Origin: Bacteroidota bacterium
Lineage (GTDB): Bacteria > Bacteroidota > Bacteroidia > Bacteroidales > CAIWKO01
Length of the DNA: 64,000 bases
Assembly: GCA_037128515.1 (NCBI GenBank)
Contig: JBAXWF010000002.1
Coordinates: forward strand, 49,586 to 113,585
Direction of reading: 5' to 3'
In this document: positions 5,519 through 59,146 of the stretch, one piece after another
Numbering within the stretch: the stretch's first letter is position 1
Layout: every line of letters begins with the position of its first letter
Program-made: the position numbers and the translations under genes
The notes under the pieces: generated by a model
Seen by the model: only the letters and a program-made list of their open reading frames with translations
Told to the model about the DNA's origin: nothing
Database searches by the model: none

Positions 5519-6541
5519 ATGTTAAACATTGATTGGAAAAACTTGCCTTTCGGTTATTTGAAAACCGATTATAATGTTCGTTGTTATTGGCGTAACGGAC
5601 AATGGGGCGAACTGGAAGTATCCTCTTCAGAAACAGTAAATATTCATATCGCCGCTACTTGTTTACACTACGGGCAAGAAGCTTTTGAAGGGTTAAAGGC
5701 CTTTCGTTGTATAGATGGCAAAGTTCGCGTTTTTCGTTGGGAAGAAAACGCAAAACGACTTAGAAAATCTGCTGATGGCATTTTGATGAAAGCAGTTCCC
5801 GATACTTTATTTAAAGAAGCGATGGAACTTGCCGTTAAATTAAACATGGATTTTGTTCCACCTCAGGAAACCGGTTCTTCACTTTATATTCGTCCTTTGT
5901 TAATTGGTTCAGGAGCTAAAGTTGGTGTTCAACCTGCTGATGAATATTTGTTTATGATTTTTGTTACACCAGTTGGGCCGTATTTTAAAGAAGGATTTAA
6001 GCCTGTAAACGTTCAGATTATTCGAGATTACGATCGTGCTGCTCCATTGGGAACCGGGCATATTAAGGTGGGTGGAAATTATGCTGCAAGTTTGATTGCT
6101 GGTGAACGAGCTCATCATGAAGGGTATTCAACTGCCATTTTTCTCGATGCTCACGAAAAGAAGTTTATTGATGAAGCCGGACCCGCAAATTTCTTTGCTA
6201 TAAAAGGGAATACCTATATCACACCACAATCAAAATCGATACTCCCTTCAATAACCAATATGAGTTTACGTGTATTGGCTGAAGATATGGGGATGAAAGT
6301 CGAATTACGATCGATTACGGTTGACGAATTGGCCGATTTTGATGAAGTTGGTGCATGTGGAACTGCAGCAGTTATTTCACCTATTAAGAAAATTCAGGAT
6401 CGTGATACCGGCAAAGTATATGAATACTGCAAGGATGGTAATGCAGGTCCTGTTTCAACAAAATTGTATAATCGTTTACGAGCTATTCAATCAGGTGAGG
6501 AACCTGATAAGTTTGGGTGGACTCATGTTATTGGTGAGTAA
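5519..6541 (+). CDS. ilvE: branched-chain-amino-acid aminotransferase
   Basis: 340-aa class-IV aminotransferase. Motifs seen: YGQEAFEGLKAF, LYIRPL, KVGGNYA, GTAAVI. Confidence 0.9.
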   Translation: MLNIDWKNLPFGYLKTDYNVRCYWRNGQWGELEVSSSETVNIHIAATCLHYGQEAFEGLKAFRCIDGKVRVFRWEENAKRLRKSADGILMKAVPDTLFKEAMELAVKLNMDFVPPQETGSSLYIRPLLIGSGAKVGVQPADEYLFMIFVTPVGPYFKEGFKPVNVQIIRDYDRAAPLGTGHIKVGGNYAASLIAGERAHHEGYSTAIFLDAHEKKFIDEAGPANFFAIKGNTYITPQSKSILPSITNMSLRVLAEDMGMKVELRSITVDELADFDEVGACGTAAVISPIKKIQDRDTGKVYEYCKDGNAGPVSTKLYNRLRAIQSGEEPDKFGWTHVIGE

Positions 6542-10160: not shown

Positions 10161-11297
10161 CTAACTTAACTCTTCAATGATTTCAATATAATTCACATTA
10201 CGTTTGCCAAGTTCTATTAGTAGATATTCTACGCAATCGGGGTATTGACCAATATATTCCGGAACCGACAAACCTTTTTTGGTATACAATCCGTTTGCAA
10301 TCATTCGCAGTGCACAAGTAGCCGTATAGCCTGTGGTACGTGCCATCGAATGGGTATGTGTTTCTTCGTCATAGCGGTCGAGGAGGTCGTAAGTATAGCG
10401 AAGTTTTTTATTGTTTTTTGTTCCTTCAACAATCACTTTCATTATAGTAAGGTCTCGCTCACCGGGTTTTAGTTCCCATAGCGGAAACAGCAACTTGGCA
10501 GTTATATCCATGGGTTTTACTTTCACACCATTTACATCAATTTCGTTCTGACTAAAGAAACCTGTTTCGCGCAGCACTTTTACCAAAGCCACATGCCCCG
10601 GGTAACGTAAGGTTTTTTCTTTGATGTTTGCTGCTTTAATGGTTTTCCCTAGCGACCGTATACCATCGCTATTGAACGATTCCAAGGTTCCAATGCCTGG
10701 AAAGTTCAATAATTCTGTATCCGATAGTGCTTCGCGTGTAATTTCTTTGAAATTTTCGATATAGCGAGCCGGTCGTGTATATTCTTCCACCACATCGATA
10801 GGAGAAAAACCGGCTTTATATTCATACGGATATTCACGTATTTCGGGCAAGCCACCCACGTAGGTGAGCGAAGTTTCAGTTTCGTCGAGCAAATGGGCCA
10901 CATAGCCTGTCAATATATGCATCATACCCGGAGCCACCCCGCAATCCATAATTGCAATCACATTGTTTTTCAGTGCCAGTTCGCTTAGTTCAAATGGGTC
11001 TTCGGGAAAAAAAGCAATATCAACAGTGTTTTTTTTAGCTTCAATTATTGCTTTCAATGTTTGAAATCCCATAAATCCGGGAACAGCGTTTATCACCATA
11101 TCATACCCTGCAACGAGCTTCTTTACGGTTTGGGGATTCGACAAATCCTGCATAATAGTTGTGATGCCAAATTTGTTTAAACGTGCAAACGATTTATTAC
11201 TAATATCGGCTATGGCAACTTCAAATTTACCATCTTTTGCCAAATCTATAGCCATAGGCCCACCAACCAAACCAGCTCCCAAAACAATAACTTTCAT
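10161..11297 (-). CDS. saccharopine dehydrogenase-family NAD(P)-binding protein
   Basis: Start chosen at MKVIVLGAGLVGGPMAIDLA (Rossmann GxGxxG). About 378 aa. The family is recognised from the N- and C-terminal domains. Confidence 0.75.
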   Translation of the reverse strand: MKVIVLGAGLVGGPMAIDLAKDGKFEVAIADISNKSFARLNKFGITTIMQDLSNPQTVKKLVAGYDMVINAVPGFMGFQTLKAIIEAKKNTVDIAFFPEDPFELSELALKNNVIAIMDCGVAPGMMHILTGYVAHLLDETETSLTYVGGLPEIREYPYEYKAGFSPIDVVEEYTRPARYIENFKEITREALSDTELLNFPGIGTLESFNSDGIRSLGKTIKAANIKEKTLRYPGHVALVKVLRETGFFSQNEIDVNGVKVKPMDITAKLLFPLWELKPGERDLTIMKVIVEGTKNNKKLRYTYDLLDRYDEETHTHSMARTTGYTATCALRMIANGLYTKKGLSVPEYIGQYPDCVEYLLIELGKRNVNYIEIIEELS

Positions 11298-11412
11298 ACT
11301 TTTTTTTATGTAAAAGTAGTAAAAAATCGGAAAAGTATGCTGCAAAATTCTGACATTTACATTTGATATTTTATTTTTGCAGGAAGAAATTTCTAAAAAT
11401 AAAAAGGGGATT

Positions 11413-11988
11413 ATGACATACCATCCTCCCTTCACCAACCGAAAATCGCAACGATTAAACCATTATGATTATTCAAAGGATAATCTGTATTTTGTAACGT
11501 CATGCGTTAAAGACCGCGTTTGTTGTTTTGGCGAAATTGTTGGTAAAAAAATGAAATTGAACGATCACGGAAAAATTGCCGAAAAACAATGGTTTTGGTT
11601 GGGCCAACAATATTCGTATGTTGTTTTGCATGCATTTACGGTGATGCCCAATCATATTCATAGCATTATTGAAATTGATCATAATCGCGTTATCGATATT
11701 GTAGGGACAGGTCGCGACCTGTCCCTACAATACGATCCGTCCAAACGAAATGATCCGTCAAAAAAACAAAAAATAAAATCCCTGTCCGAATTGATGGGTG
11801 CATACAAAACAACCGTTTCGAAACAAATACATTTGTCGGGCGATAAACATTTTGCATGGCAACGTTCCTTTCACGATCATATCATTCGCAACCACAATGA
11901 ATATCAGGCCATTTCTAATTATATCAATAACAACCCTGCAAAATGGAATGATGATATGTTTTTCAATTCCGATATTCCAACATTATAA
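11413..11988 (+). CDS. IS200/RAYT-like HUH (Y1) transposase-family protein, solitary
   Basis: HUH motif MPNHIHSII (HIH at 11653-11661). C-terminal WQRSFHDHIIRN...YINNNPAKW. No flanking IS ends are evident. Confidence 0.75.
   Translation: MTYHPPFTNRKSQRLNHYDYSKDNLYFVTSCVKDRVCCFGEIVGKKMKLNDHGKIAEKQWFWLGQQYSYVVLHAFTVMPNHIHSIIEIDHNRVIDIVGTGRDLSLQYDPSKRNDPSKKQKIKSLSELMGAYKTTVSKQIHLSGDKHFAWQRSFHDHIIRNHNEYQAISNYINNNPAKWNDDMFFNSDIPTL
11697..11732. repeat. perfect 36-bp palindrome inside the HUH gene
   Basis: TATTGTAGGGACAGGTCGCGACCTGTCCCTACAATA equals its own reverse complement. It encodes the linker IVGTGRDLSLQY. Confidence 0.95.
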
Positions 11989-12019
11989 AAAATAATTACA
12001 ACACAACGATAACAAAAAA

Positions 12020-12052
12020 AACAGGAACCCATTTTCATGCATTCCTGTTTTT
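12020..12052. terminator. stem-loop terminator between the HUH gene and the convergent orphan gene
   Basis: AACAGGAA...TTCCTGTT stem, preceded by an A-run and followed by TTT. Confidence 0.5.
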
Positions 12053-12073
12053 CAACATCCTTTGTGTTTTTTC

Positions 12074-12688
12074 TCATCTGATACCATACAGTATCGGTTT
12101 GCTTGCAGGCATCAGGCCTGCTTTTGTGAGCGGGCGAACCCTGAACCAACGCTTCGTATCGGGAGTGCCCGACAGATAGGTTTTGCGTTGCTTCGATACC
12201 CCTGCAAACAACCATGCACTGTCGCTTACGGGTAATTTATCATCTGCACTCACCTGCCAGAGATAACTTACTGCTTTCGGATATGCCACACATCCTATCA
12301 GGAATTCTCCGGGGCTCATGCCTGCCAGAATCCAGAAATCGTCGCGCTGCGACGCTTCAGGTTCTTTTGATAATTCAAAACCACTGCTGATGATGATGCC
12401 TTCATCATCATCAGCAGTGACATCAACATATTTGGCCAGTTTGCGCAATAGTTCGAGCAAACTTTTCTTCGAATTTTTCAGGTTCGAATGGTCAAGTTTA
12501 CTTCCGCCTTGTGCAAGTGCGGCTTTATCTTCCACATCGTCGATGGCCGCCGTTACGTCGACCAGTTTCGGACTGGGAGTTGTGAAATTAGGATTACCGG
12601 TCATTTTGTCTACGACAGAACGACTAAATACTATCAGCTTGTCTACTGAGTAGCGAACAAAGCTGAAAATTAATTTTCTAAGTCTCAT
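12074..12688 (-). CDS. hypothetical protein (GC-rich orphan)
   Basis: 204-aa ORF. Sampled 60-nt windows reach about 60% GC, against roughly 30-38% in the neighbouring sequence. No motif recognised. Confidence 0.65.
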   Translation of the reverse strand: MRLRKLIFSFVRYSVDKLIVFSRSVVDKMTGNPNFTTPSPKLVDVTAAIDDVEDKAALAQGGSKLDHSNLKNSKKSLLELLRKLAKYVDVTADDDEGIIISSGFELSKEPEASQRDDFWILAGMSPGEFLIGCVAYPKAVSYLWQVSADDKLPVSDSAWLFAGVSKQRKTYLSGTPDTKRWFRVRPLTKAGLMPASKPILYGIR

Positions 12689-42845: not shown

Positions 42846-42862
42846 ATTTTATATCGAATAAA

Positions 42863-42898
42863 AAGATAGGGATGCGAATTTTCGCATCCCTATCTTTT
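42863..42898. terminator. bidirectional terminator between convergent eno and the MTAP gene
   Basis: 15-bp perfect stem AAGATAGGGATGCGA/TCGCATCCCTATCTT, 4-nt loop, flanked by A-run and T-run. Confidence 0.85.
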
Positions 42899-59093: not shown

Positions 59094-59112
59094 AATACTT
59101 CGGAGAAAAAAA

Positions 59113-59146
59113 ACGCCCTGAAAAATATTTTTCAGGGCGTTTTTTT
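59113..59146. terminator. bidirectional terminator between convergent rho and the DUF1573 gene
   Basis: ACGCCCTGAAAAA/TTTTTCAGGGCGT stem followed by T6. Confidence 0.8.

Follow-up and report, generated by a model that had tools for sequence, protein, structure and literature searches.

A perfect GTAG-footed palindrome located in frame inside a predicted TnpA-REP gene of subclass 2.4 in a Bacteroidota bacterium

Introduction

The term repetitive extragenic palindromic sequences (REPs) denotes palindromes of 20-40 bp with a GTAG tag that are present in high copy number and are mostly extragenic (Di Nocera et al. 2013, PMC3733652). The present work deals with a GTAG-tagged palindrome that is located inside the coding sequence of a gene predicted to encode a TnpA-REP protein, also called REP-associated tyrosine transposase (RAYT). 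This gene is found in a stretch of 64,000 nucleotides from a Bacteroidota bacterium (GenBank assembly GCA_037128515.1, contig JBAXWF010000002.1, positions 49,586 to 113,585 of the forward strand), which is referred to as the window and to which all coordinates correspond. An earlier note, made from the letters of the window alone, had called attention to this palindrome and to the possibility that it is an inserted hairpin element or the recognition substrate of the enzyme itself.

The closest described system is the TnpA-REP subclass 2.4 defined by Quentin, Siguier, Chandler and Fichant (2018, BMC Genomics 19:475, PMC6006769), which corresponds to the RAYT group 4 of Bertels et al. According to that paper, the proteins of this subclass have a mean length of 194 amino acids and the signatures NH[IFV]H, WQ and YIxNNP, and their unique feature is that REPs have been inserted in frame in the segment that separates HuH from Tyr. 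The insertion, located between strand beta3, which carries HuH, and helix alphaC, varies in length and sequence and consists of short DNA repeats or REPs in frame. REPs of this subclass have a 5' GT[AG]G foot, often as a 'double foot' with 3' C[TC]AC, and are called species-specific, and the residues that contact GTAG in the E. coli protein (W94, Q95 and R104) are conserved in the subclass (PMC6006769). Table S1 of that paper lists the REP GTAGGGACAGGTCGTGACCTGTCC for a subclass 2.4 gene of Paludibacter propionicigenes (ADQ78812.1), and the REP of the window differs from it by one base. For group 4 RAYTs only low-abundance flanking 16-mers have been described. The window gene resembles this subclass in its motifs, its length, the insertion after the HuH strand, the footed REP in frame in the gene and the occurrence in Bacteroidetes. 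Flanking REP copies are absent, and for this reason the gene does not correspond to the classical REPtron of the subclass. The earlier note missed that the phenomenon had already been described in 2018 (PMC6006769), and the window case is a new example of it, with low novelty in itself.

Other described systems share a part of these features. The TnpA-REP of E. coli, with its REPs and bacterial interspersed mosaic elements (PDB 4ER8; subclass 2.2, RAYT group 2), has in common with the window protein the HUH-Y1 fold and the W/Q/H/R residues that contact GTAG, and its substrate is a hairpin with 5' GTAG, a foot that the hairpin of the window also has. However, both proteins are about 17% identical, the regulatory C-terminal tail is a feature of the E. 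coli protein that sets it apart from the window protein, and the E. coli REPs are imperfect, bulged, single-footed and extragenic, with hundreds of copies, whereas the window palindrome is perfect, two-footed and intragenic. The transposases of the insertion sequences (IS) of the IS200/IS605 type, such as IS608 and ISDra2, share the catalytic fold and the logic of recognition of subterminal hairpins in single-stranded DNA (ssDNA) with a 5' tetranucleotide guide, but these elements are autonomous and multi-copy, with distinct left and right ends and often with tnpB, and none of these features was found at the window gene within the 64 kb. The REPIN-RAYT systems of Pseudomonas (Bertels & Rainey) also link a family of palindromic repeats of the GTAG type with a domesticated Y1 transposase that occurs in single copy, as the window gene does within the 64 kb. 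Their repeats, the REPINs, are extragenic doublets of inverted REPs that are vertically inherited and number hundreds per genome, whereas the window contains one compact palindrome with few or no copies nearby. In addition, Di Nocera et al. (2013, PMC3733652) described unrelated genes that contain in-frame copies of GTAG REPs. These intragenic REPs and the Rickettsia palindromic elements are, like the window palindrome, short palindromes placed in frame in coding genes and tolerated in loops or linkers; their host genes are unrelated, notably genes of DNA repair, whereas in the window the host is the gene of the presumed mobilising enzyme. Strand-specific binding, cleavage and strand transfer on folded ssDNA REPs have been reported only for the enzymes of E. 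coli, S. maltophilia and Marinomonas (PMC8266576), and TnpA-REP enzymes associated with perfect-palindrome REPs bind and cleave those REPs in vitro (Corneloup et al. 2021).

Results

The palindrome and its position in the gene

The gene is an intact open reading frame (ORF) located at positions 11413-11988 of the forward strand, with 191 codons plus the stop codon, and it keeps all the residues that are invariant in the family. At positions 11697-11732 it contains the perfect palindrome TATTGTAGGGACAGGTCGCGACCTGTCCCTACAATA, which is identical to its own reverse complement, with two arms of 18 nt and no spacer. This 36-bp sequence is composed of a 28-bp 'double-foot' REP, GTAGGGACAGGTCGCGACCTGTCCCTAC (11701-11728), and of two 4-bp extensions, TATT and AATA, at its sides. 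The tag GTAG...CTAC gives each strand of the REP a 5' GTAG foot; the stem is rich in G+C, and CGCG forms the centre. Its G+C content is 64%, compared with 36% in the rest of the gene and 37% in the window. Starting 36 nt downstream of the HIH codons (11653-11661), the palindrome precedes the helix with the tyrosine and is translated as a linker, residues I96-Y107, with the peptide (D)IVGTGRDLSLQY. Two of the three reading frames of the 28-bp REP are open (VGTGRDLSL and RDRSRPVP) and the third one has a TAG.

The palindrome is a real and non-random feature, far beyond chance. About 9e-7 perfect palindromes with 18-bp arms are expected in 64 kb under uniform composition, none of 100 shuffles matched the 28-mer with up to 3 mismatches, and the ssDNA fold of the palindrome has an energy of -20.2 kcal/mol (z = -7.5), a stability that was reached by none of 200 shuffles. 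Accordingly, the description given in the earlier note concerning the sequence, the coordinates, the G+C-rich core, the place between HIH and the tyrosine helix and the low probability of a chance origin was entirely borne out.

An antisense ORF that crosses the element (11690-11857, minus strand) encodes the same IVGTGRDLSLQY peptide. A spurious second match on the minus strand was obtained when the protein was compared with the window by tblastn because the element is its own reverse complement.

The host protein

The protein was classified as a TnpA-REP/RAYT of subclass 2.4 on the basis of its motifs NHIH, WQ and YINNNP and its length of 191 amino acids, and it is predicted to be an HUH-Y1 single-strand DNA endonuclease. 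The HUH motif N80-H81-I82-H83 (11650-11661, forward strand), in which N80, H81 and H83 are invariant, is situated at the end region of strand 81-88 and agrees with the signature NH[IFV]H. The sequence W149-Q150-R-S-F-H-D155-H156-I-I-R159 (11857-11889, forward strand) aligns with the GTAG-contacting block of the E. coli TnpA-REP (W94, Q95, W99, E100, H101 and R104), and in the hmmsearch alignment to 4er8_A the residues W149, Q150, H154, D155, H156 and R159 correspond to W94, Q95, W99, E100, H101 and R104, respectively. The Tyr motif Y170-I-N-N-N-P175 (11920-11937, forward strand), with the presumed catalytic tyrosine, is located on helix 161-180; Y170 and N174 are invariant, and the motif agrees with the signature YIxNNP and is aligned with YIYINP of E. 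coli. The profile alignment to 4er8 pairs AWQRSFHDHIIR...NYINNNP with IWQPRFWEHAIR...DYIYINP.

A database search yielded 1221 homologs of 157-251 amino acids, mostly from Bacteroidota and metagenomes, and the profile built from the homologs had the E. coli TnpA-REP 4er8_A as its sole match of solved structure (E 0.005). The same entry was the top PDB match of the AlphaFold model in Foldseek (probability 1.00, template modelling scores of 0.48 and 0.55), followed by the IS200, IS608 and ISDra2 transposases. In the model, residues 89-123 form a loop between strand 81-88 and helix 124-141, with a predicted local distance difference test (pLDDT) value below 50 at residues 97-107, and this loop holds one intact REP and, apparently, two decayed arms. 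According to the model, the segment, for which the earlier note had proposed a structural check, thus belongs to a loop of low confidence that links the HUH strand to the helix that follows it.

REP copies in homologous genes

The alignment of homologs, also proposed in the earlier note, revealed that REP-derived peptides are encoded by 101 of the 120 best homologs, with at least one copy and up to six, in several loops and in two reading frames. Most of 34 aligned homologs show VGTGRDLSL, into which GTAGGGACAGGTCGCGACCTGTCCCTAC is translated, at the same loop as the window protein, often two to four times; the beta-hairpin loop of the N-terminal part, a loop further along the protein and the termini are other REP sites. 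The extra length of the homologs within their range mostly corresponds, in the alignment, to REP-derived segments at the HUH-helix loop, and the segment is missing from four homologs of 157-159 amino acids that are apparently intact. The same 28-mer is read in a second frame, as RDRSRPVPT, in L015, L106, P0019, P0058 and P0103 (loci and proteins of the homolog sets are designated by L and P numbers). As the same DNA is read in two frames, the element is a DNA-level unit and not a peptide motif.

A sample of 80 metagenomic homolog loci was picked by peptide patterns located far from the palindrome, without reference to the REP. In this sample the homologs of 45-64% identity have the same REP in the gene, in the flanks or in both, and those below 45% identity have other GTAG-footed palindromes in the gene, often with the same one in the flank (L165, L167, L174, L176, L160 and L154). 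Examples of these palindromes of distant homologs are GGGCGGGTT...AACCCGCCC, GGGCGAATTGCAATTCGCCC, GAGACGCCCAA...TTGGGCGTCTC and GGACAGCTCGCGAGCTGTCC. The earlier note had considered that homologs might have an ordinary sequence at this position; the same or different GTAG-footed palindromes were found instead in the homologous genes. The element recurs in and around homologous genes, changes its sequence together with the protein and is dispersed in many genomes. Third codon positions in the most conserved blocks of the protein agree with those of the window gene at a level of only about 0.55, and 10 loci nevertheless contain the exact 28-mer; the element is therefore maintained or renewed at the DNA level.

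The number of REP arms per kb, calculated for loci with at least one arm, is 4.5 in the gene, 2.9 in the flank at 0-300 bp, 0.23 at 300-1000 bp and 0.07 at 1-3 kb, so that the density in the genes is about 60 times that at a distance of 1-3 kb. A G+C-rich hairpin is present within 600 bp of the gene in 36 of the 80 homolog loci, and 24 of the 80 have no such hairpin at all; flanking copies are therefore common in the subfamily, although not universal. Covariation was counted in 22 REP variants, with 59 double-sided changes, a number that was not reached in any of 500 shuffles. As these sequences had been chosen as perfect inverted repeats, the count is not an independent proof of structure; the set shows the number of different palindromes that exist in genes and flanks, and the persistence of the GTAG/CTAC feet, which had not been selected for.

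The palindromy often reaches beyond the core into the flanks, with TATT/AATA in the window, ATATT/AATAT in L125 and (TTG)4/(CAA)4 in L157. The extension of the window is shared by close relatives, since L125 has ATATTGTAGGG...CCCTACAATAT and the proteins P0002-P0007 contain IVGTGRDLSL[QR]Y. The most extreme flank extension is that of L157 (3245-3300), where a homologous gene contains the perfect 56-bp palindrome (TTG)4-GTAGGG...CCCTAC-(CAA)4. The predicted peptide consists of a valine run, GTGRDLSL and a glutamine run, in this order. In L055 (7164-7680; Candidatus Poriferihabitaceae, Gammaproteobacteria) the homologous gene is in two frames and is split exactly at a cluster of a partial and a full REP, which corresponds either to a gene inactivated by out-of-frame REP insertion or to an error of long-read assembly.

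Dispersal of the element in other genomes

The earlier note had proposed a genome-wide count of the palindrome, whose absence elsewhere would have spoken against an inserted element. Many genomes were found to contain dispersed copies of the element that lie outside the homologous genes. In a collection of species-representative genomes, at least 120 blocks of 8 kb contain the exact 22-mer core, with at least 131 copies in all, and OZ243042.1 and the CAYTSP01 bin have at least 10 exact copies each. Among the matches listed, both GTA/TAC feet are present on 89 of the 131 copies, and the blocks have G+C contents of 30-67% and are labelled as many phyla, including Bacteroidota (with Pontibacter, Segetibacter and Xanthomarina isolates), Patescibacteria, Nitrospinota, Gammaproteobacteria, Fibrobacter, Spirochaetia, Calditrichia, Ignavibacteria, Aminicenantes and others. 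In this same set the homologous gene lies within 13 of the 120 blocks (about one in ten), and the copies outside homologous genes are mostly not in long ORFs. In-frame REP copies were also found in unrelated genes, which encode a Ser/Thr kinase domain, a KDO (3-deoxy-D-manno-octulosonic acid) transferase and YchF. In a search of about 2.9 million viral contigs (IMG/VR), the exact 28-mer was present in only four (L201-L204), and therefore phages do not look like a major carrier.

Some of these dispersed copies have particular arrangements. In the Ser/Thr kinase genes of L007 (about position 1859) and L101 (about position 5788), from bins labelled as Patescibacteria and Aminicenantes, the REP occupies the same place in the kinase domain (…EG.TLK[ED][IT][IV]S-VGTGRDLSL-PLN…). 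An insertion common to related genes, transfer of the gene or mis-binning could account for this. In a Bacteroidetes metagenome-assembled genome (MAG), locus L011 (1940-2240, JADKIC010000002.1) shows a tandem array with a period of 44 bp and a REP core in each unit (GTAGGGACAGGTCGCGACCTGTCCCGGGAAAACAATCCACGTAT), with at least 7 units and no spacers. A shared sequence of about 20 nt, similar to ACGAACAAAACCGCACCGCC, precedes the REP in L112, L030, L040, L065, L097, L064, L059 and L012 (Nitrospinota and unclassified MAGs). The repeated unit of these loci is therefore longer than the 28-mer, and it may be a composite element similar to a miniature inverted-repeat transposable element.

The DPSK-coding repeat

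The short duplicated DPSK-coding repeat that the earlier note described downstream of the palindrome is present, with two copies of GATCCGTC at positions 11734-11741 and 11752-11759; the note missed that this repeat appears to be made of decayed REP arms. The sequence at 11733-11768 (forward strand) would correspond to two decayed right-arm units of 18 nt, CGATCCGTCCAAACGAAA and TGATCCGTCAAAAAAACA, which follow in phase with the 18-nt period set by the intact right arm and its spacer. Thus, positions 11715-11768 can be written as three units of 18 nt, CGACCTGTCCCTAC+AATA (the intact right arm, 11715-11732), CGATCCGTCCAAAC+GAAA and TGATCCGTCAAAAA+AACA, and it is from this register of three units that the repeat is read as two decayed right arms. 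The own statistical support of this reading is modest, and the first decayed unit alone matches weakly (10/16, a level reached by about 2% of random 60-nt windows). In L010 (six units) and L050 (three units) there are arrays of intact right arms that likewise repeat every 18 nt, and other one-arm arrays in homolog loci consist of right arms with a period of 33 nt (L108) or of left arms with a period of 27 nt (L089).

Discussion

The gene is very probably a TnpA-REP/RAYT of subclass 2.4, and the palindrome the cognate REP of the subfamily, inserted or locally duplicated in frame in the disordered loop that separates the HUH strand from the DNA-binding helix behind it. The proposal of the earlier note, an inserted hairpin element of the type used as substrate by the enzyme itself and placed in a variable loop, is supported by the comparative sequence evidence and agrees with the literature on the subfamily (PMC6006769). 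By analogy with the TnpA-REP enzymes of E. coli, S. maltophilia and Marinomonas and with IS608, the protein would bind the folded hairpin on ssDNA, would read the GTAG foot through the block W149/Q150/H156/R159 and would cleave and rejoin the DNA nearby, using Y170 and a metal bound by HUH. New REP copies would accumulate within the gene and beside it, since the enzyme would act preferentially near the place of its synthesis. The copies that survive in the gene would be those with an open frame, a total length multiple of 3 nt (in the window, 36 nt plus two 18-nt units) and a tolerant location, since two of the three frames are open and the loop is peripheral with respect to the active site. 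Hairpin-templated correction of a quasi-palindrome, that is, template switching, may best explain why the symmetry is perfect and why a TATT/AATA extension specific to the lineage is present, and the palindromic flanks of other loci would fit it as well. In comparison with the parts of Quentin et al. (2018) that were consulted, the data go somewhat beyond what was described with regard to the identity of one REP across labels of many phyla, in contrast to the species-specific REPs of that paper, the reading frames of the element, of which two are open and one has a stop, the arrays of single arms and the in-gene density peak.

Several points weigh against this interpretation. Neither a second 28-mer (with up to 3 mismatches) nor further 14-nt arms (with up to 3 mismatches) nor the pattern GTAGGG...CCCTAC was found elsewhere in the 64-kb window, and none of them flanks the gene. 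The copy is alone in the window and shows no sign of current activity there, and therefore it could be a relic inherited with the gene. The TnpA-REP enzymes that have been assayed in vitro are all outside subclass 2.4 (PMC8266576), and the mechanism is proposed by analogy. The scan with the 22-mer returns blocks of 8 kb, and the copy numbers are lower bounds; most of the non-Bacteroidota labels correspond to metagenome bins, and the arm-density profile is conditional on loci that have an arm. With regard to the protein, the match to the NCBIfam family REP_Tyr_transpos (NF047646; E 4e-14, 52.7 bits, cutoff 80) and that to Pfam Y1_Tnp (PF01797; E 7e-4, 20.2 bits, cutoff 23) are both below the cutoff, the quality of the model is moderate (mean pLDDT 70), with a Foldseek E-value to 4er8 of only 1.7e-3. 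The Pfam match spans only the half of the protein that follows the insertion, and the genes fall below the Pfam and NCBIfam thresholds because the REP-derived segments push the scores down.

The stability of the hairpin raises the possibility that it is kept as a regulator of the gene, either as an RNA or DNA structure that throttles transcription, translation or the half-life of the mRNA, or as an autoregulatory binding site for the protein. The presence of a REP-derived segment in 84% of the 120 best homologs, the exactness of the element in spite of nearly saturated synonymous sites around it and the effects of REPs on mRNA stability and termination mentioned in PMC6006769 are consistent with this explanation. 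Nevertheless, it is considered unlikely, as the number of copies (0-6), their position (loops, termini and flanks) and their reading frame vary freely, the four apparently intact homologs of 157-159 amino acids have no copy, the same element is present in unrelated housekeeping genes and in intergenic DNA, and the one-arm arrays, which are unable to form a hairpin, are also retained. A selected VGTGRDLSL peptide, with the palindrome as a by-product, would account for its recurrence at the same loop in most homologs. It is hardly credible in view of the second frame, RDRSRPVPT, used in some genes, of the copies in unrelated proteins and outside long ORFs, and of the codons that remain fixed in a segment predicted to be disordered while the neighbouring synonymous sites vary. 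An origin by chance or by assembly artefact, with an expectation of about 1e-6 and the same element in hundreds of independent assemblies, deserves just as little credit.

It is very improbable that the gene is the transposase of an autonomous IS of the IS200/IS605 type and the palindrome one of its end hairpins that has been displaced, although the Y1 HUH fold, the IS200, IS608 and ISDra2 transposases as the next-best structural matches and the weak Pfam Y1_Tnp match would be in agreement with it. The best match in both structure and sequence is the TnpA-REP 4er8, the motifs fit TnpA-REP subclass 2.4 and not TnpA-IS200, and the hairpin bears the GTAG foot of REPs. Besides, the gene is single-copy, with no second homologous gene in the 64 kb, and neither IS ends nor flanking subterminal hairpins nor tnpB were found around it in the window, where the statement of the earlier note about a solitary gene without IS ends or flanking REP pairs holds.

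Within the interpretation of the palindrome as the cognate REP of the subfamily, a more speculative role may be proposed, which is rather improbable: the intragenic REP might be a heritable seed copy that makes the gene and the hairpin a self-contained unit, and it might also feed back on the expression of the enzyme. The recognition site would ride in the coding sequence, and horizontal transfer of the gene would deliver the substrate that founds a new REP population. If true, this would explain the identity of the 22-mer core, mostly as the full 28-mer, across labels of many phyla with 30-67% G+C, the in-gene density peak and the perfect copy kept by a lone gene. If the assignment of the bins holds, the identity of one REP across phyla bears on whether REP-RAYT systems are always vertically inherited. 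With respect to annotation, VGTGRDLSL, RDRSRPVPT and the extra length of these 'transposases' are to be regarded as footprints of a mobile DNA hairpin and not as protein features. Among the RAYT groups, physical nesting of enzyme and substrate is found in subclass 2.4 alone, and an enzyme of 191 amino acids with a perfect 28-nt hairpin, symmetric on both strands, would constitute a simple pair for biochemistry, possibly also for uses in the style of HUH tags.

Other features of the window

The neighbours of the gene are a saccharopine-dehydrogenase-like gene and a conserved hypothetical gene. Directly after the stop codon, an inverted repeat flanked by A/T (12017-12052), without GTAG foot and without REP arm, is probably a terminator between convergent genes, unrelated in sequence to the REP. 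An Rfam search of the region 11200-12200 with a permissive threshold gave only sub-threshold noise of eukaryotic miRNA and snoRNA families, and the promoter and terminator scan was uninformative, the 'promoter-like' matches within the palindrome being consensus noise.

A perfect hairpin with arms of 17 bp and a loop of 4 nt, CACTGCTGATGATGATG-CCTT-CATCATCATCAGCAGTG, is located at 12382-12419 in the coding sequence 12074-12688 (minus strand), where it encodes TADDDEGIIISS. It was considered as a second inserted element and rejected, because it is not related to the REP and ten homologs have the same length at this point (IAxGDENILISS vs TADDDEGIIISS). The upstream codons of this hairpin look as though conversion had turned them into the reverse complement of those for the conserved ILISS, a signature of template switching. 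Two other long perfect inverted repeats with flanking A/T runs, AAAAGATAGGGATGCGAA/TTCGCATCCCTATCTTTT at 42861-42898 and the 40-bp palindrome AAAAAAACGCCCTGAAAAATATTTTTCAGGGCGTTTTTTT at 59107-59146, are probably bidirectional terminators, unrelated to the REP.

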